Assembly: GCA_030877765.1 (NCBI GenBank)
Contig: GCA_030877765.1_4853.1
DNA from: a phage
Direction: 5' to 3' (one strand)
Length of the DNA: 46,671 bases
Part shown: positions 1,801 to 38,641 of the stretch, one piece after another
How the letters are laid out: each line of letters starts with the position of its first letter
Position numbering within the stretch: the stretch's first letter is position 1
Made by a program: the position numbers and the translations under genes
The notes under the pieces: generated by a model
What the model saw: the letters and a program-made list of their open reading frames with translations, nothing else
Databases searched by the model: none
What the model was told of the DNA's origin: nothing

Positions 1801-2850
1801 TTAAAATCCTTCAATTGGAGTTGGTTTATGTTCGGTTTTTGTTTCTTCCTGCTGTTCTGGCTGATGATGTTGCGGTTTAGCCAGTTTTGCAGGGTTGAAA
1901 TTATCCTGTGGAGTTATTACCACAGGAGGTAATTGCTCATCATTGATAAAAGACTCAATGCGATCATATTCAGCAGCAGAAGCAGCGAGAGAAGGCCATA
2001 TTGCACGAATCTTATCTTTCAGGTTATCAGGTATTGATTTCGCCTCTTCCTTCAGTCCTTCCATTCCTTTTGCTGCTGAAAGCTGAAGTCGTGAGCGCCA
2101 TGATTCAAACTCTTCGTCAACTTTAACACCAGAGTCCACCCATTTGATGAGTCCTCGACCATGAGCCTCTCCAATATAGCCATGACGAACGCTTTCACGA
2201 CCAGACTCAAAGAAGATGGGGCGTAGCTCTTCTGGTAATTTGGTGAACTCCTGAATTTTTCCTCCATCGTGCATCATCATGCTCACGGTCATCTCGAACA
2301 TGAAATCTTTCTCGCACACTGGCTGTAACCCAAGTGATACAGGTTCCTTCGGGTTTGCGAAGTCAGTTTTCTGGCGAGCGCGAAGACAGACAATGATATG
2401 CATATCGCTTTGTAGCATGGCATTCATGAACTTCTTGTGTTCAGCTTTGGCGCGCTTCCAGTCAGCCATCTTTTTACCGTTAAGCAGCGGCTTTTCAGCA
2501 ATCTCCGTGCAACTGCCTTCACCTTCCCATTCATGCGAACCTGAATCAATAACAAGAACCTTAACGCCGGCAGCCTGAAACTCTTCAATGGCCTGACGGT
2601 AACGGGCCGGGCTGAATGGAGCATACATATCAGCGTGCAGGAATTTGCCATCAAGGATGTTTGAGTACAGGCGACCGCGACCATTTTCAGTATCAAGGAA
2701 TCCGATTTCTTCTGGTGAGTCAACCATCCCGCGAGCCAGCTTAAGTGCGCTGTATGTTTTTCCGCTACCAGACTGGCCTGAAATACCGATGACTACACGA
2801 GAACCTGAACGCTCTGCTGGTTTAATATTGAGAATACCCATTTTCATCAC
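1801..2850 (-). CDS. RecA-like/AAA ATPase (recombination/replication); true start probably ATG at 2841
   Basis: Walker A GISGQSGSGKTYSALKLARG; Walker B-like hydrophobic strand plus D; GAGGTG RBS 8 nt before the 2841 ATG. Confidence 0.75.
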   Translation of the reverse strand: MMKMGILNIKPAERSGSRVVIGISGQSGSGKTYSALKLARGMVDSPEEIGFLDTENGRGRLYSNILDGKFLHADMYAPFSPARYRQAIEEFQAAGVKVLVIDSGSHEWEGEGSCTEIAEKPLLNGKKMADWKRAKAEHKKFMNAMLQSDMHIIVCLRARQKTDFANPKEPVSLGLQPVCEKDFMFEMTVSMMMHDGGKIQEFTKLPEELRPIFFESGRESVRHGYIGEAHGRGLIKWVDSGVKVDEEFESWRSRLQLSAAKGMEGLKEEAKSIPDNLKDKIRAIWPSLAASAAEYDRIESFINDEQLPPVVITPQDNFNPAKLAKPQHHQPEQQEETKTEHKPTPIEGF

Positions 2851-2858
2851 CTCACTAA

Positions 2859-3803
2859 TTATAAATTAAACTGTTTTTTGAACCATTCAGGCGTTTCCAT
2901 TTCTATGACAGGATTACCCATTGAATAACCGGGCCACGAATTGGCTTTTTTGCACGCCTTGTAAATTTCCATAGCGCCATGCAACTGAATTCGACCGATG
3001 CGTAATTGCTCTTCAGTCAAGCGAATTAACGCAGGAATAAATGGTGCTTTCTTTTCCTGAACGAGAAGATTAACAGAGCGTGGCGCATGACCATATGCCG
3101 CAACAAACATGTCGTGCTGCATCGCCATTTTCATAAAGTACCCAAGTCTCGCAGCATGACGGAAAAACTCTTCTGGCTTGGCGCTCACCGCTGTTTTGTA
3201 GTCGATGATGTCGCCACCTTTGGTAAGGCAGTCAAAGCGAACTTTTGCCTTCTCTCCGTTAAGTTCACCTAGAATTGACACTTCAGCATAAGCACCAGCG
3301 AGAAGACTGCTGTAATAGCTGTTTGCGTGGATTACAGCACGCATTTGCTGAATAGCGTCATAATCACCACCTTCCAGCATTTGCTTTCCTACAGCAGCTT
3401 TTTCAGCCTCTTCACGGATGACATCGTAAATTTTCACTGGCTCGCCAGTCGCCTGGATGATTTTGATCACCTCAGCTTTCGACTTTCCTGAAAGTCCTTT
3501 GATGCCTCGTTCTTTTGCCCATGAGTTCATATCACTTACAGTAACAAGCAGGTCATCACCAAAATCTTCTTTGGTTGGCATTCGTGCATATTCAGCATCA
3601 AAACGCTCTGGTTCAAGCAACGCAGTATGGCTACCTGTACCGAATATAAGAGCTTTTGATTGCTCATCCTCTTCGTCTTTGTATCGCCATGCTGCCGGGC
3701 ATCTGTCAAGTATATTCCATAATCCAGAACCATTAATGTGCTCTGTGTCAGCATGATAATCCTGATTGCTTAATTCATTGTTGAAATAAACTCTCATCAT
3801 CAC
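2859..3803 (-). CDS. PD-(D/E)XK family nuclease (RecB/Cas4-like exonuclease)
   Basis: GGDIIDYKT motif with downstream acidic residues; same operon as ATPase and SSB as in phage recombination modules. Confidence 0.65.
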   Translation of the reverse strand: MMMRVYFNNELSNQDYHADTEHINGSGLWNILDRCPAAWRYKDEEDEQSKALIFGTGSHTALLEPERFDAEYARMPTKEDFGDDLLVTVSDMNSWAKERGIKGLSGKSKAEVIKIIQATGEPVKIYDVIREEAEKAAVGKQMLEGGDYDAIQQMRAVIHANSYYSSLLAGAYAEVSILGELNGEKAKVRFDCLTKGGDIIDYKTAVSAKPEEFFRHAARLGYFMKMAMQHDMFVAAYGHAPRSVNLLVQEKKAPFIPALIRLTEEQLRIGRIQLHGAMEIYKACKKANSWPGYSMGNPVIEMETPEWFKKQFNL

Positions 3804-14019: not shown

Positions 14020-14532
14020 ATGCGACCCTTAAAAGAAGAAAAACTCACGCAAGACAGGCTGAAAGAGTTGCTGCATTATAACCATGATACTGGTATTTTC
14101 ACATGGGTTCAGCGCGCCTCAAAAAGCGTAAGAGTTGGTAATTCAGCTGGCAGTAAGAATAAGTCAGGCTATATAGATATACGCATCGATAAGTCTTTAC
14201 ACAAAGCTCATCGGCTTGCGTGGCTTTACATTTATGGTGTGTGGCCCAATGGGAAAATAGATCACATCAATAACGTGAAGACAGATAACAGAATCTGCAA
14301 CCTGAGAGAAGCAAGCAATAATGAAAACGGATGGAATGCTGGTAAACCATCGACAAATACGTCAGGAGTAAAAGGTGTGAGTTGGGATGCAGAGAAAAAT
14401 AAATGGAAGGCGCATTGCAGGGTTTTTGGGAAAAAATATACAGTAGGTAGGTTTTCATCAAAAGAATATGCTGAGAGAGCCGTGGCGGAGTTCAGAGAGA
14501 AACATCACGGGGAGTTTTTTAATCATGGCTAG
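14020..14532 (+). CDS. HNH-AP2 homing endonuclease (paralog 2 of 4), between terS and terL
   Basis: AHRLAWLYIYGVWPNGKIDHINNVKTDNRICNLR followed by NTSGVKGVSWDAEKNKWKAHCRVFGKKYTVGRF. Confidence 0.85.
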   Translation: MRPLKEEKLTQDRLKELLHYNHDTGIFTWVQRASKSVRVGNSAGSKNKSGYIDIRIDKSLHKAHRLAWLYIYGVWPNGKIDHINNVKTDNRICNLREASNNENGWNAGKPSTNTSGVKGVSWDAEKNKWKAHCRVFGKKYTVGRFSSKEYAERAVAEFREKHHGEFFNHG

Positions 14533-15949
14533 AAAAAGACTCTCAAGTGTGGCAATCGAAAAACTTGAACAGGCGGTTGGAAACTCAACTTCAAAGCCTG
14601 AGTCTGCTGTATTTGGCATTGTTAACAAACTGCTTGCCGATGGTACGCCTAATGTTATAAAGCGCCTAAAAATGACATCAACAGGCGTATCTGAAACAAA
14701 CGAAGAACCAACAATACTCATTCCCGAGAGAATGGAATTACTGCTTTATCCTCGCCGTTTCAAAGTGTTCTATGGAGGTAGGGGCAGCGGAAAGACGGCT
14801 AACGTTGTTTCTTACCTTATAGAAAAGGCAAGATTTCGCAACAGCCGCGTCGGATGCTTTCGTGAGATACAGAACTCAATCAAAGAATCAAGCTATGCCG
14901 AACTGGTTGATGAGATAAACAGGAAAGGACACACTCAGGAATATCGTTGCGTGGATGGTGAAATAACCCACCATTCAACGAGGTCAAAGTTTGTTTTCCG
15001 TGGTTTGTGGCGAAATATAACCGCCATTAAGGGTATGGCTGGCCTTACAGATGTATTCTGTGAAGAATCAGAAAATATCAGCCAGGTTTCATGGGATACG
15101 CTAATCCCAACAGTCCGCGCCGCTGGCTCTGAAATTATTATTGTTTTTAACCCAAACAAAGAGACGGACCCGACATGGACTAACTTTGTTGCGCCTTATA
15201 TTGACAAGATGGTTGACGGCATATATCAGGATGATGACATCGTTGTTGTTAATGTTAATTACATCCACAACCCGTGGTTCACGGAAGAACTTAAGCAGCA
15301 CATGAACCAGATGAAAGCTGTGGATTATGATCGCTACCTTTGGGTGTATGAAGGCTTATTCAACAAGCGGTCTGACGAAGCTGTTCTCGGGGGGAAATGG
15401 CAAACACTCGACTTTGAACCATCTCCTGAGTGGGGTGGGCCTTACTACGGCATTGACTTTGGTTTTTCTCAGGATGCAACAGCAGCAACTGAATCATATG
15501 TAGAAGATTTGGGTGATGGACGAAGAAACCTGTATATCTATCGTGACTTTGCAAAGGTTGGCCTTGAGATAACTGACACGCCGGAAGCGATGCGCTCAGC
15601 ATTCCCAAATTCAGAGAAGTACAGATGGTATGGGGATTGCGCAAGACCTGAAACAATAAGCCATATACGACGCTCTGGATTCGATATTCATCCGTGCGCA
15701 AAATGGCCGGGGAGCATTGAGGACGGTATTACGTGGCTGCGTGGGTGTGACAGGATTTACGTGCACTCAAGATGCAGGCACGTCATTGAAGAGATGACAA
15801 TGTACAGCTATAAGGTGGACAAATTAACAGGTAACATACTCCCTGATATAGTTGATAAATACAATCACGCGATTGATAGTTTACGCTATGGACTTGGAGA
15901 TCACATCGTTCAACGCGGTAGCGGGATGCTAATCCGGCGCAGTCGATAA
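14525..15949 (+). CDS. Terminase large subunit
   Basis: Walker A YGGRGSGKT, ATPase and nuclease domain layout; ATG 14525 overlaps the HNH stop. Confidence 0.9.
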   Translation: MARKRLSSVAIEKLEQAVGNSTSKPESAVFGIVNKLLADGTPNVIKRLKMTSTGVSETNEEPTILIPERMELLLYPRRFKVFYGGRGSGKTANVVSYLIEKARFRNSRVGCFREIQNSIKESSYAELVDEINRKGHTQEYRCVDGEITHHSTRSKFVFRGLWRNITAIKGMAGLTDVFCEESENISQVSWDTLIPTVRAAGSEIIIVFNPNKETDPTWTNFVAPYIDKMVDGIYQDDDIVVVNVNYIHNPWFTEELKQHMNQMKAVDYDRYLWVYEGLFNKRSDEAVLGGKWQTLDFEPSPEWGGPYYGIDFGFSQDATAATESYVEDLGDGRRNLYIYRDFAKVGLEITDTPEAMRSAFPNSEKYRWYGDCARPETISHIRRSGFDIHPCAKWPGSIEDGITWLRGCDRIYVHSRCRHVIEEMTMYSYKVDKLTGNILPDIVDKYNHAIDSLRYGLGDHIVQRGSGMLIRRSR

Positions 15950-15965
15950 ATCCGCATCACCACAC

Positions 15966-16004
15966 TTGACCAATCTACACCGAGCGCATAGTATAATCTA
16001 CATC
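15966..16004 (+). promoter_or_regulatory. Sigma70-like promoter
   Basis: TTGACC, 17 bp, TAGTAT overlapping TATAAT; two AATCTAC boxes inside. Confidence 0.55.
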
Positions 16005-16025
16005 AGGCTTATCGGAGATATCACT

Positions 16026-16232
16026 ATGCGCAGCTATGCAGGGTTCACACAGGAGGAGAAAGAGCAGGTTTATTCACTGGCTCGGGCTGGTGTGCCAGAT
16101 GAGGTGATTTGCCGTCGGTATGACATCGACGAGGATTTCCTGCTGCGCGTTATTGATGATGTCTTCGTTAACCTGCAAGAGAAGCGCGGATATAAAGGTA
16201 TCTGCTGCAAGAATGATTTTTTGAGAGGGTGA
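16026..16232 (+). CDS. Hypothetical protein (68 aa)
   Basis: ATG 16026 downstream of the promoter; track ORF 15966-16232 is over-extended. Confidence 0.45.
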   Translation: MRSYAGFTQEEKEQVYSLARAGVPDEVICRRYDIDEDFLLRVIDDVFVNLQEKRGYKGICCKNDFLRG

Positions 16233-16233
16233 T

Positions 16234-16431
16234 GTGATGATTAAGATGAGCAAGATGAGCAACAGAAGCAAGGTTTGCAGGATTGCTTTATTGCCAATCT
16301 TCCTGCCTGTGTGGTTGTTATGGGTTTTATTTTCTGGGGCGAGAAATCTATTTGAGTATCTTGAATTTTGTCAGGCAAAGGTTATACGAAAATTCCATGA
16401 TGTCATTGATAAGTGGTTTCCGCTTGGTTGA
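16234..16431 (+). CDS. Small membrane protein (65 aa)
   Basis: One TM helix (LLPIFLPVWLLWVLF). Confidence 0.4.
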   Translation: MMIKMSKMSNRSKVCRIALLPIFLPVWLLWVLFSGARNLFEYLEFCQAKVIRKFHDVIDKWFPLG

Positions 16432-16604
16432 GGTGATGTGATGAAAATTGAAGAAACAGTTAACTGCATGGCGATTAATGTGTTCACGGATTGCGATACC
16501 ATTTGCGTGCAGGATTTCACTGGCGATTATGTCAGGATTGACAAACACCAAGCCGCGCAGCTAATCGAAGTCCTGCAACGCTGGGTTAATGGTGAGGAAA
16601 TTGA

Positions 16605-16793
16605 GTGATGAGTGTTTATTTCATTCATGGTGAAGTGCTTGATGGTGGTGATGTTGTTACCAAGGTTTGCGCGACATCTACGGCATCAAACGCCAGTGAA
16701 GCGTTTGATTGGTTTTTGGGTTGCGAATTGGTTGTAAAGTACGAAATAAAAGGCTACGACGTCATCATTGATAAACTGGAAAAGGTGGAGTGA
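16605..16793 (+). CDS. Hypothetical protein (62 aa)
   Basis: Track ORF with GGTGAGG RBS. Confidence 0.4.
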   Translation: MMSVYFIHGEVLDGGDVVTKVCATSTASNASEAFDWFLGCELVVKYEIKGYDVIIDKLEKVE

Positions 16794-16964
16794 TGGCGCT
16801 ATTCTGGTCGTTCTGGATTCCACTTAATTTTATGTTCTGGTGGTTTATAGCAGCCGGAGTGCAAGAGCCAAGCAAGATACATTTCATGATTAGTTCATTT
16901 TTCGCTGTGATGACTGGTGTTGTGCCATGCTTGTTGTATCAATATTTCAAATAGAGGTGGAGTG

Positions 16965-17162
16965 ATGCATTTCAAATCACTAAATACCATAAGGAACGAG
17001 ATGGTTGGTGGCAAATATAAAAACCACAGAGACGAAGTAGTAACCGTTGTTAATGTTGTTGGCGCTGGCGGTGGTTATCAGGTCCATTTTAATTACGGCA
17101 TGCCATACAATGTGGTTTGCGGACTTGGCAAGTTCAGGCAGCGATACCCGCATAAGGTTTAG
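16965..17162 (+). CDS. Hypothetical protein (65 aa)
   Basis: ATG 16965 preceded by GAGGTGGAG. Confidence 0.4.
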   Translation: MHFKSLNTIRNEMVGGKYKNHRDEVVTVVNVVGAGGGYQVHFNYGMPYNVVCGLGKFRQRYPHKV

Positions 17163-17183
17163 CCATATACCATCCATGCTATA

Positions 17184-17212
17184 ATCCCATCCAACGTGAT
17201 GGGATTTTTTAT
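17184..17212 (+). terminator. Rho-independent terminator immediately upstream of the portal gene
   Basis: 8-bp stem atcccatc/gatgggat, 6-nt loop, TTTTTTATT; a TGCTATAAT extended -10 overlaps its 5' side. Confidence 0.65.
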
Positions 17213-17221
17213 TGGTGACAT

Positions 17222-18634
17222 ATGTCAAAAATTGATGCACTAAACGCTTATATACGCGACCGCGTAGCGAACAATAACCGGGCGATCCAGCAGCAACGGC
17301 TTTGCGCTGGCGGGAAGAATCTGGACCAGAAGCGAGAGTTCATGTGGAAGGAACTTGGCTACCCGCAGGAAATCACCGCCGAGATGTTCCGCTATGCCTA
17401 TGAGCGACACCCAGCCGCCGCCGCTGGAATTAACCGCATTATTAATAAATGTTGGCAGAAATACCCTGAAGTTGTCGAAGATGGCGAGGATGACAAGAAC
17501 TCAACGACATGGGAGCTGTCCATCAACGACATGATGAAGCGCGCCTACCCGTTCATCAAGGAGGCTGATAAGCGCAACGCCATCAACCGCTATTCCGCTG
17601 TTATCCTGCAAATCCGTGACGGCAAACAGTGGAGTGAGCCTGTAGACATTACAAAAACCCGCCGCATTAAAGATAAATCCATCGCTCGCTTTATTCCGGT
17701 ATGGGAAGAGCAGCTACGCGTTAGCGCATGGAATAACGACGAAACCAGCGAAGACTACGGAATGCCTGAGATGTACGAATATCAGGAAAGCGCCGTGGAG
17801 GACTTCGATAGCGATGGCAAGCCTGAGCGTTCCGTGCAGATTCACCCTGACCGCATCATCATTCTGGCTGAGGGTAGTTTTGACGGCAGTATGTTCAGTG
17901 GCATCCCGATGTTGCGTGCTGGCTACAATAGCCTTATCGACATGGCTAAGGTTTCAGGTAGTTCAGCAGAAGGATTCCTGAAGAATGCCAGCCGTCAACT
18001 GGCTGTTAACTACACGAAGGACAACGTAACGCCAGCAAGCCTTGCGCAGTCTATGGGTGTCGATATTGAAGAACTCACTGACATCATGAATGAGAACATC
18101 GAAGCGCTAAACTCAGGCATCGACGCAGCTATGTTCACAATGGGGGCGGATGCAAAGGTGCTTGCCGTAACGCCAGCCGACCCGAAACCAACATGGGAAG
18201 TGGCTGCCAACCAGTTCGCTGCATCAATGGCGCTTCCGTTCACCGTCATTTTTGGTCAGCAAACCGGACGCCTTGCGAGTGATGAGGACAAGATGCAGGA
18301 GGCGATGACAGCCAAGCAGCGCCGCGAAACGTGGGTTGATTATGTCATCTCAATGTTCGTTGAGCGCATGATTCAGTTCGGCATTGTCGATAAAGCACCG
18401 GCAAATGGCTACAAGGTTAAGTGGGATGATCTGCTTGCCCCATCAGAGCTGGATAAAGCTGAATTGCTGTCCAAGCTCGCCACTGCGAACAAGTCCTTCT
18501 TTGATGCTGGTCAATCTGCACTGCTGACCGTCGATGAAGCTCGCGGCATGGTTGGCATGGAGCCAATTGAACTTGACGAAAGCTATCGCGAAGACACACC
18601 GCCGGAAGACGAAAATGAAGATACTCCGGTTTAA
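17222..18634 (+). CDS. Portal protein
   Basis: 470 aa, acidic C-terminus, located after the terminase block; assigned by position, size and composition. Confidence 0.7.
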
Positions 18635-19565
18635 CGCAAGGCTACCCCAACCGCGCATATCGCAGAGCCTGACAGACCCGCTGGGTGCTGCGACTCGCCT
18701 GTCGAAGATGGATAAGGTGATAACGCGCAAATACAAACAATTCAGGACTCGTGCTCTTGAGTTGTTTCGCACTATTCCGAACGGTCAGGCTAATGCAGAA
18801 TCAAGCGGTCTGTATTTCTACGATTTCAGCAGTGCACGGGCTGCCACTTTCATGGATGAGTTACAGGCGCTGATTGACGAGATTCTTCTTGAAGGTGATG
18901 ATTTCGGTCACGGCAGGATGTGGGCCAATGTGTTCATTGGTGATGCGTATCAGGCCGGAACACAAAAGGCTAACTCAGAACTGTCAAGCCTGTCTCCGGT
19001 TTACGCTGAGCAGAGGCCGATTGCCGCGATACTCTACAGTGAGCCTTACCTGAATCGGCTCCAACTGGCTTATACGCAAGGTTACTCAGACTGGCGCGGA
19101 TTGAGTGATTACTCCCGCCAGCAACTGGCATCTGTCATTATGGAAGGCATTGCCCGTGGCGCTAATCCTCGCGATGTTGAAGCTGACATTGTTAAACGTG
19201 TTGATGTATCTCACAGCTACGCGAAACAGTTGGCGCAGACTGAAATAACCGGAACGCTACGTCAGGCTAACAGGCGGGAGGTCATTGAGGCGCGCGAAGA
19301 GTTAGGCATTGAGACGGTGATGCTGTGGCAATCGGCGTTGATGCGCACAACCCGCCAGACGCACGCAGCGCGACACGGACGGTTTTATACACCAGAAGAG
19401 ATTGACACGTTTTATAGCGAGAATGGCAATAAATATAATTGTCACTGTGCACAAACACCAGCATTGCTAATGGATGGGAAACCAGTCATTCTTGAATCCT
19501 CGCAGGAAAGGCTTGATAAACAGCGTGAAGCATGGCAATCAGTCAACAAAAAGCCCTCTAAGTGA
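18615..19565 (+). CDS. Head morphogenesis protein (SPP1 gp7-like minor head protein)
   Basis: Follows the portal; in-frame ATG at 18615 overlaps the portal stop; assigned by position and size. Confidence 0.6.
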
Positions 19566-19580
19566 GGGCTTGGTTTTGTC
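19553..19580. terminator. Bidirectional terminator
   Basis: Stem gccctc/gagggc with 5-nt loop, then TTGGTTTTG. Confidence 0.7.
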
Positions 19581-27034: not shown

Positions 27035-27050
27035 TCATGGGCTGCTATAA
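27035..27050 (+). promoter_or_regulatory. Extended -10 promoter (TGcTATAAT) ahead of the capsid module
   Basis: GGGCTGCTATAATTTAAT within an inverted repeat; same TGCTATAAT as at 17178. Confidence 0.4.
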
Positions 27051-27208
27051 TTTAATCAGGAGGTAGCCCATGAACACAATCCCTATCACCTACTTTCTCA
27101 CGCTATACGCACTCACCAATTCGCCATTGTTTGCACTGGCTACCGCCTCGTGGTGCTATATCTCCCTGTGTTATAATTCGACCACAAACTAACCGTGGAG
27201 AGTTAACC

Positions 27209-31280: not shown

Positions 31281-31284
31281 ACTG

Positions 31285-31310
31285 AACCCGCATAATGCGG
31301 GTTTTTTATT
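31285..31310 (+). terminator. Rho-independent terminator
   Basis: Stem cccgc/gcggg, 5-nt loop, TTTTTTATT. Confidence 0.75.
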
Positions 31311-31320
31311 GGGGGTTTCT

Positions 31321-32139
31321 ATGGCTGTCAGGTACGAAATAAACACAACTCCGGCTGACGGAGAGGTTTTGCTTAGCGAAACCATGTCTGCGGACTGGTC
31401 AGCATTACAGGTGCAGATTGTGCCGCTAAATTCTTCCGGTGGCTATGTGCCATTAACAAGCGGGTCTGTTTACGTAATGGTATCGCCGTTTGCGTCTGGT
31501 GATTTCTGGATTGACGTCAACAATAATAATTATTATGGCGTAGCGCTGCGGCTGAAGGTGATCAAGTCCCAAATACCTGCTGGCATTGCATCTCTGAAAG
31601 TCCTTGTATGGCGAGCAGCTACATCAGTGCCATCAAGTCAGGTTGTGGCACAGTCCTATGCAGAGTTTGCTAACAAGCAAGGGAAGTTATTCACTGCGTC
31701 GCGCAGAGTAACTGATGTCGCTGGCAGCTCAAACCTTGACAGCATATTTATCACCGGAACAAAGCAGGTGATATTCAACCAGCGCATTATTGGTTACACG
31801 GGGAAAGGTGTTGTTGCATCAATCTATCGCGGCGCAGTTGCCACTGGCGGTACGACGGCAGAGATTAACAACCCAAACGACATAACGCCACAAGCAGCTA
31901 CGGCGCAGTTAATTACTGGCGCTACCGTGACAAACATCGGGCAGCTGACGGTGGCGGCAACATACAGTGAGGGTAACGCATCGAATCAGGGGCAGGGTAA
32001 CTCGCAGGCGAAGCTCGGCGAGCAGATTATCATGGCACCGAATACGACGTACTTACTTCGCATAACATCACTAGATACTGCGGCGCAGAATATCAATGCG
32101 TACGTTTCATGGTTTGAGGATGATACTTATCTGGCGTGA
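31321..32139 (+). CDS. Hypothetical (probably virion-associated) Thr/Ala/Gly-rich protein
   Basis: 273 aa from MAVRYEIN; flanked by terminators on both sides. Confidence 0.5.
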   Translation: MAVRYEINTTPADGEVLLSETMSADWSALQVQIVPLNSSGGYVPLTSGSVYVMVSPFASGDFWIDVNNNNYYGVALRLKVIKSQIPAGIASLKVLVWRAATSVPSSQVVAQSYAEFANKQGKLFTASRRVTDVAGSSNLDSIFITGTKQVIFNQRIIGYTGKGVVASIYRGAVATGGTTAEINNPNDITPQAATAQLITGATVTNIGQLTVAATYSEGNASNQGQGNSQAKLGEQIIMAPNTTYLLRITSLDTAAQNINAYVSWFEDDTYLA

Positions 32140-36624: not shown

Positions 36625-36701
36625 TGGTGGACACGGACGGATTTGAACCTTCAATCAGCCGATTATTAGTCGGTTGCTTTAACCAATTAAGCTACGCGTC
36701 C
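36625..36701 (-). tRNA. tRNA-like gene (77 nt including encoded CCA); apparent anticodon AAU
   Basis: Minus strand folds by eye: 7-bp acceptor stem with one G-U, D-arm GCTT/AAGC, anticodon stem-loop with loop CTAATAA, T-loop GGTTCAAATCC, discriminator A plus CCA. One mismatch each in anticodon and T stems. Confidence 0.55.
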
Positions 36702-37199: not shown

Positions 37200-37243
37200 A
37201 ATCTACACCACAAAATAATCGCTGTCAACACCTGTGATATAAT
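37200..37243. promoter_or_regulatory. Divergent promoter pair: leftward into the non-coding locus, rightward for the major tail gene
   Basis: Minus strand TTGACA (37228-37223), 17 bp, TAGATT (37205-37200); plus strand extended -10 TGaTATAAT (37235-37243). Confidence 0.6.
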
Positions 37244-38592: not shown

Positions 38593-38641
38593 AATCTACA
38601 TCACCACCTCGCAGGTGTCAACACTACTGAGATGATATAAT
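38593..38641. promoter_or_regulatory. Divergent promoter pair: leftward for the Imm cassette, rightward for the tail assembly genes
   Basis: Minus strand TTGACA (38621-38616), 17 bp, TAGATT (38598-38593); plus strand extended -10 TGaTATAAT (38633-38641). Confidence 0.6.

Follow-up and report, generated by a model that had tools for sequence, protein, structure and literature searches.

Gene neighbourhood of the portal gene

The window analysed here, a 46,671-nucleotide stretch of phage DNA (contig GCA_030877765.1_4853.1 of GenBank assembly GCA_030877765.1), belongs to a Guernseyvirinae-like siphophage and is 99.8–99.9% identical over the region of interest to Escherichia phages 6947, HC6 and HC8A. 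The gene for the large terminase subunit opens a co-directional block that runs through six small ORFs and is closed by a terminator just in front of the portal gene (Table 1). On its other side the terminase ORF adjoins and overlaps that of an HNH endonuclease, an arrangement known from HNH-dependent packaging systems. The small ORFs form an accessory block which differs from relative to relative, and the last of them stops at a TAG codon (17160–17162). When window positions 16605–16954 are set against 2589–3153 of ON637251.1, the window proves to be 218 bp shorter than the 99.9%-identical phage 6947; one accessory-block ORF (6947 CDS 2774–2992) is probably absent from the window, which would make the difference a one-gene indel within that block, upstream of the cassette described below. 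Downstream, the portal gene and a gene for a Mu F-like head morphogenesis protein form a unit that ends at a second terminator, which faces convergent genes.

Table 1. Features of the portal locus and related sites. Positions refer to the window unless a contig or locus is named.
Feature	Position	Strand	Basis or remark
HNH endonuclease gene	14020–14532		directly upstream of large terminase gene; ORFs overlap
Terminase large subunit gene	14468–15949	+	Pfam Terminase_3 and Terminase_3C; PHROG terminase large subunit
Six small ORFs, variable accessory block	15966–17162	+	ORF list; five of six match PHROGs of unknown function
Extended −10 promoter element TGCTATAAT (TGn + hexamer)	17177–17185	+	exact match; without usable −35
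−10 hexamer TATAAT	17180–17185	+	part of TGCTATAAT
Terminator hairpin, 9-bp stem and 6-nt loop	17183–17206	+	terminator scan, folding, pairing across variants
Hairpin 5′ arm AATCCCATC	17183–17191	+	
Hairpin loop CAACGT	17192–17197	+	
Predicted transcription start, inside hairpin loop	17192–17194	+	inferred from usual −10-to-start spacing
Hairpin 3′ arm GATGGGATT	17198–17206	+	
T-tract TTTTTTAT (terminator U-tract)	17205–17212	+	sequence; 5–8 T in all variants
Shine-Dalgarno-like GGTGA of portal gene, outside hairpin	17214–17218	+	sequence
Portal protein gene	17222–18634	+	Pfam Phage_portal_3, E = 6e-21; annotated portal in relatives
Mu F-like head morphogenesis gene	18708–19565	+	PHROG 758, Pfam Phage_Mu_F; start from phage 6947 annotation
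Two-way hairpin terminator	19551–19571	both	terminator scan; equivalent site annotated terminator in Skate
TGNTATAAT motif starts	17177, 27043, 27169, 37235, 38633	+	exact match; short gaps before genes
Four further TGNTATAAT elements	27043–27051, 27169–27177, 37235–37243, 38633–38641	+	
Klebsiella lambdoid cassette	L058 9381–9411; L067 9611–9641; about 60% of loci L165–L244, just upstream of position 1501		

A terminator and a promoter element share the gap before the portal gene

Between the final ORF of the accessory block and the portal gene lie 59 bp, into which a terminator, a putative promoter and a ribosome binding site are packed. Read directly from positions 16800–17600, the stretch upstream of the portal gene runs ...ccatccaTGCTATAATcccatccaacgtgatgggattttttattggtgacatATG, and the portal ATG at 17222 begins a 470-codon ORF. 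The hairpin has nine base pairs, four of them G-C. Its T run (six T at 17205–17210, then ATT) begins within the stem, its first two bases being paired with the 5′-arm AA. A G+C-containing stem-loop within the usual dimensions (a stem of about 5–14 bp, a loop of 3–8 nt) and a U-tract, TTTTTTATT, directly 3′ of the stem (from 17205/17207) are the hallmarks of an intrinsic terminator. Folded by itself the hairpin reaches −11.6 kcal/mol (z = −3.5), as good a fold being found in one of 200 shuffled sequences, and in the terminator scan it stands mid-table among the hairpin and T-tract sites of the window. The reverse strand forms a hairpin too, but the U-tract is absent from that strand, so the signal is one-directional and a two-way terminator at this site was rejected. 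Elsewhere in the window, at 31284–31324, a strong terminator (GAACCCGCATAATGCGGGTTTTTTT) that overlaps no consensus −10 precedes GGGGG and an ATG (31322) by no more than 17 nt; the gene at 31322 apparently relies on read-through or else on a weak TAAACT element.

The promoter element is an exact TGCTATAAT, with TGn directly 5′ of the hexamer. Extended −10 promoters (TGnTATAAT) are used by sigma-70 polymerase without a −35, galP1-type promoters being an example. The best −35 match at the portal site is 3/6, and a promoter scan with two hexamers does not list the site because it lacks a −35; it qualifies solely as an extended −10 promoter. Its position is suited to driving the downstream gene, with a predicted 5′ UTR of about 29 nt, while the G+C-rich discriminator, CCC, may make the promoter weaker or condition-dependent. 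Three bases (AAT, 17183–17185) are common to the −10 element and the stem.

These observations agree in the main with a sequence-only reading of the locus, which had placed a strong terminator with an 8-bp stem and an extended −10 overlapping its 5′ arm directly upstream of the portal gene. Both elements are present, and recur in all related loci examined, and the overlap amounts to the three bases just given. The hairpin is likewise real, with a stem of nine pairs in place of eight, but 'strong' was generous for what is a typical canonical intrinsic terminator of average strength.

The portal cassette belongs to no known RNA family: a search of positions 16900–17500 against Rfam at E ≤ 1 gave no match, and a tRNA was the sole hit when the whole window was searched at gathering thresholds. 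This tRNA gene (36628–36701, 62 bits) lies on the − strand amid + strand structural genes, and at the equivalent place Salmonella phage Skate has an annotated tRNA-Ile.

Conservation of the cassette across relatives

We compared the DNA upstream of the portal gene in 33 IMG/VR contigs, nine GenBank phages and further contigs found by pattern search, which together provided about 69 portal-linked loci (some contigs having been fetched twice) with 19 distinct cassette sequences. Klebsiella phages are among the GenBank set, as is Vibrio phage pYD38-A; the latter shares its Roufvirus species assignment with Aeromonas phage pIS4-A. The motif TGNTATAAT is invariant throughout these loci and variants, the sole variable position being N (C, A or T), which is also the degenerate position of the consensus. 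The hairpin occurs in four stem versions (CCCATC/GATGGG, CCCTC/GAGGG, CCCC/GGGG and CCCTTAC/GTGAGGG) with arms of 7–9 bp; the loops vary freely across these versions, and the stem is followed by 5–8 T in each of the 19 variants. Pairing has been held in relatives despite the change in sequence: in an alignment of 12 representatives, 98.9% of the pair cells hold standard pairs, compared with 35–61% when the 3′ partner is slid. Changes on both sides are found at three pairs, all in one diverged allele, and the other stem versions are matched deletions on both arms, such that we regard the covariation evidence as real but thin, with few independent events behind it.

A diverged allele, of the L028/L035 type, is about 66% identical to the window over the 50 nt and retains TGATATAAT, the hairpin and the T-tract. 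Its hexamer no longer overlaps the stem as in the window, and it is the exception to an otherwise conserved TGGTGA in the Shine-Dalgarno region. A search from the L028 portal for further diverged alleles returned the same contigs again. The full arrangement is present in each related locus examined and is therefore not a product of chance. The Skate record already marks its hairpin as a terminator; in the relatives' records that we examined a terminator is annotated at most and a promoter never, and our literature search found no paper describing the cassette.

A mosaic junction at the cassette

Conservation starts abruptly at CCATG, six bases before the hexamer. The 41 distinct upstream contexts share nothing 5′ of this point, and no conserved −35 was found across them, the best matches being 0–3/6 with one exception. 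In phages with unrelated upstream DNA (43–53% identity), identity to the window reaches 86–96% in the last 50 nt before the ATG, stands at 80–95% over the first 120 nt of the portal gene and drops to 57–74% in the remainder of that gene. The breakpoint at portal codon 37 is sharp, and synonymous sites before it are conserved too. Window positions 17175–17332, that is, the cassette and the first 37 portal codons, are a bounded shared segment beside a portal gene that is otherwise about 57–74% identical. Judging from this identity profile, a recombination junction lies inside the portal gene. Which hairpin type a phage carries is linked neither to its portal allele nor to its upstream genes. The high conservation of the cassette could partly reflect recombination; extended −10, hairpin and T-tract nevertheless persist in the diverged L028/L035 allele, which speaks for functional selection and not for recent exchange alone.

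The extended −10 element as a probable promoter of structural genes

The motif TGNTATAAT occurs five times in the window, compared with 1.68 occurrences expected on both strands, and all five sites lie on the + strand and end about 18–37 nt before a start codon. Besides the portal gene, the genes that they precede are a small ORF, the DUF2213/capsid operon, the tail tube gene and the tape-measure operon. The portal copy alone overlaps a terminator. In Skate, whose portal is about 67% identical, the motif stands before the portal gene and the other genes and operons just listed, apart from the small ORF; four of the five sites in the window thus have a counterpart at a matching gene position, and three of those four head structural-gene units. 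This distribution suggests that extended −10 promoters head each structural-gene unit and define the structural transcription units. At the tail tube and tape-measure sites (37200–37243 and 38593–38641) the opposite strand carries a match to TTGACA-17-TAGATT, back-to-back with the + strand extended −10, and both regions contain GTCAACAC; they may be divergent promoter pairs or sites for a common regulator.

Two further observations bear on the portal copy. The invariance of TG and TAT (17177–17182) cannot be put down to pairing, since this portion of the element is not part of the stem. Moreover, the cassette is intact in Klebsiella phage BUCT541, whose upstream genes occupy the opposite strand, and in ZX4, which has no genes annotated in the upstream stretch; with these layouts, the portal gene needs a promoter of its own.

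A model for transcription through the cassette

Based upon these comparisons, we favour a model, to which we would give a probability of roughly 0.7, in which the terminator closes the upstream block and the overlapping extended −10 restarts transcription for the portal and MuF genes. Both termination and initiation, with the exact start site, are what we infer from the elements, their conservation and their geometry. A polymerase arriving from the terminase and accessory block would transcribe the full hairpin and the U-tract and be released by intrinsic termination. Host sigma-70 RNA polymerase would also bind TGCTATAAT, for which no −35 is required, and would initiate 7–9 nt after the hexamer, between C17192 and A17194 in the loop. 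Transcription usually starts about 7–8 nt past the −10 hexamer, with a pyrimidine preferred at −1 and a purine at +1, and on account of this preference A17193 is the most likely start. The predicted start falls in the loop for three of the stem versions and in the last 2–3 nt of the 5′ arm in the L028 type. RNA born at the cassette would hold the 3′ arm only and could not form the terminator, and would run into the portal and MuF genes and end at the two-way terminator behind them. For such a promoter RNA (17193–17260) no significant structure is predicted (z = −0.13). Upstream transcripts would thus be replaced by locally started ones, and portal expression would be set by its own promoter, largely independently of the variable upstream genes.

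Read-through from upstream may nonetheless be substantial. The upstream stop codon lies 20 nt from the stem in the window and 9–11 nt from it in many relatives (the distances used are restricted to the 9, 11 and 20 nt classes, automatic calls having hit the TAA inside TATAAT in some frames). At the lambda terminator tR2, termination is nearly abolished at 8–9 bp from the stop codon and does not reach its maximum, about 0.9, until the distance exceeds about 30 bp (PMC4824070). In the literature on transcript mapping in Guernseyvirinae we found only coarse time classes from RNA-seq of K1B4, with no per-gene table, and otherwise genome notes with software predictions.

The idea that the site terminates and re-initiates transcription was put forward in the sequence-only reading, and the comparison of relatives supports it through the invariant −10, the compensated hairpin, the kept T-tract and the lack of a conserved −35. 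The same reading proposed a separation of packaging from late structural genes; what the cassette would set apart, however, are chiefly the variable small accessory genes. The attenuator that it offered as another option is given up, for reasons set out next.

Alternative explanations

The least elaborate alternative is that the locus is a terminator only, in which the TATAAT-like bases simply prolong the base of the stem by A/T-rich sequence, and that the portal gene is reached by read-through, which lowers its expression. A-rich 5′ flanks that pair with the U-tract are common in terminators, the AAT does belong to the stem, the annotators of Skate marked a terminator alone, and the terminator at 31284–31304, directly before a ribosome binding site and ATG and without a consensus −10, indicates that read-through expression occurs in this genome design. 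We consider this explanation unlikely, however, given that TG and TAT are invariant outside the stem with variation confined to the degenerate N, that the L028/L035 allele keeps TGATATAAT although the overlap of its hexamer with the stem has changed, that BUCT541 and ZX4 have no co-directional annotated genes upstream, and that TGNTATAAT is also found just before the capsid, tail tube and tape-measure operons. Improbable, too, as a full account is the idea that the cassette and the first 37 codons are a homologous 'linker' for exchange of the accessory block, with a regulatory appearance that is secondary. It draws on the rise in identity across the cassette and the first 120 nt of the portal gene, on the abrupt breakpoint at codon 37 with conserved synonymous sites before it, and on the independent assortment of hairpin types. 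Such a linker is compatible with a regulatory role and does not compete with it, and the persistence of the extended −10, the hairpin and the T-tract in the deeply diverged L028/L035 allele points to selection on function.

Regulated versions of the locus fare less well. Terminators in 5′ UTRs right after promoters are common in mapped transcriptomes of Pseudomonas phages (PMC10914365), and by analogy transcripts might start upstream of the hairpin, with termination or read-through in the portal 5′ UTR being regulated. Such a promoter-proximal attenuator is highly improbable here. Because the 5′ arm is itself overlapped by the sole −10, RNA from this element would include no more than about 2 nt of the arm; no two-hexamer promoter-like site was found on the + strand between 16000 and 17170; the sequence 5′ of CCATG is unrelated among relatives and provides no conserved leader, alternative structure, anti-terminator, leader peptide or ligand-binding domain (the last in keeping with the Rfam search at E ≤ 1); and the distance from the stop codon varies, from 9 to 20 nt or more. 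Much the same low weight attaches to the proposal that the palindrome over −10 to +15 is an operator, bound by a phage regulator that times the portal promoter, the T run being incidental. Its position across the initiation region is the classic one for a repressor, and since structural genes are usually delayed, a consensus extended −10 that otherwise fires immediately might call for such control. Yet the distance between the CCC and GGG half-sites falls from 15 to 13 to about 11 nt among the stem versions while the loops vary freely, which fits an RNA stem and not a dimer of fixed geometry, for which half-site sequence and spacing should be constant. The T-tract, moreover, is conserved in every variant, and the other four TGNTATAAT promoters have no similar palindrome.

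Relation to known systems

The terminator half of the cassette resembles the canonical intrinsic terminators of enterobacteria and enterobacterial phages, lambda tR2 among them, in that a G+C-containing stem-loop and then a U-tract lie downstream of a co-directional gene and efficiency should vary with how far away the upstream stop codon is, as measured for tR2 (PMC4824070). It departs from them in that the bases at the 5′ foot of the stem double as the 3′ half of a consensus −10 and a gene starts within 16 nt. The promoter half shares with extended −10 promoters a perfect TGn and TATAAT, the lack of a conserved −35 and a suitable distance to the gene; it would be unlike typical members of this class in its CCC discriminator and in having the 3′ half of a terminator as its predicted initially transcribed region.

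Tailed phages are known for 'moron' genes flanked by a promoter and a terminator, and for mosaic junctions, as described by Hendrix and colleagues. The portal locus is similar in that a terminator bounds a variable block of small genes, the essential neighbour has a putative promoter of its own and the boundary is a mosaic one. It differs in that the terminator and the next promoter are fused into one element of about 35 nt and are not separate flanks. Single-molecule studies have found that RNA polymerase often stays on the DNA after intrinsic termination and can re-initiate nearby (Kang 2020, PMC6978380; Harden 2020, PMC6978322), and a 2026 preprint bears the title 'Widespread coupling of promoters and terminators of transcription in bacteria' (10.64898/2026.08.19.745784). 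As in such coupled systems, the portal termination point lies about 15–20 nt past the predicted start, and a retained polymerase would therefore sit over the promoter. In comparison with post-termination recycling as observed in those studies, the coupling of re-initiation to termination is for the cassette a matter of geometry only. Overlap or coupling of terminators and promoters is an already described theme, and the parts of the cassette are textbook elements.

A similar cassette in Klebsiella lambdoid prophages

A loose scan of viral contigs for TATAATCCC-N6-18-GGGATTTTT, which was not used as evidence for the window, returned for the most part unrelated terminators with a chance TATAAT flank, an ascertainment artefact, and these matches were discarded. 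The scan also revealed an unrelated cassette in the nin region of Klebsiella lambdoid prophages, with the layout TATAAT-CCCCTC-loop-GAGGGG-TTTTT-ATG, which precedes a homologue of the DNA polymerase III theta subunit and ninB. As in the portal cassette, a −10-like hexamer overlaps the 5′ arm, the hairpin and T-run are followed directly by a gene start, and the site is a mosaic junction; it differs in phage family and downstream gene and has no TG extension in register. Its 3′ arm, GAGGGG, is the ribosome binding site, as in the L028/L035 portal cassette and unlike in the window, and in both of these cassettes the 3′ arm is the only Shine-Dalgarno sequence.

It is possible, though we put it forward tentatively and hold it to be doubtful, that the cassette is a portable filter which sorts transcripts by origin. 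With its start in the loop, an element of about 35 nt would stop upstream transcripts and not its own. In the L028/L035 and Klebsiella versions, the ribosome binding site in the 3′ arm would be masked in read-through RNA and free in locally started RNA, and the released polymerase might be recycled onto the promoter, coupling termination to re-initiation. The idea of masking is inapplicable to the window, since its GGTGA lies outside the hairpin.

Significance

With parts that are textbook elements, the finding mainly refines annotation. The cassette is nevertheless a clean natural substrate for asking whether a polymerase released at a terminator re-initiates at an overlapping promoter. If it works as we propose, it would also provide phage engineers with a compact natural insulator part that combines terminator, promoter and ribosome binding site, and it would mean that a small lytic phage decouples an essential head gene from a fast-changing accessory block within about 50 nt.
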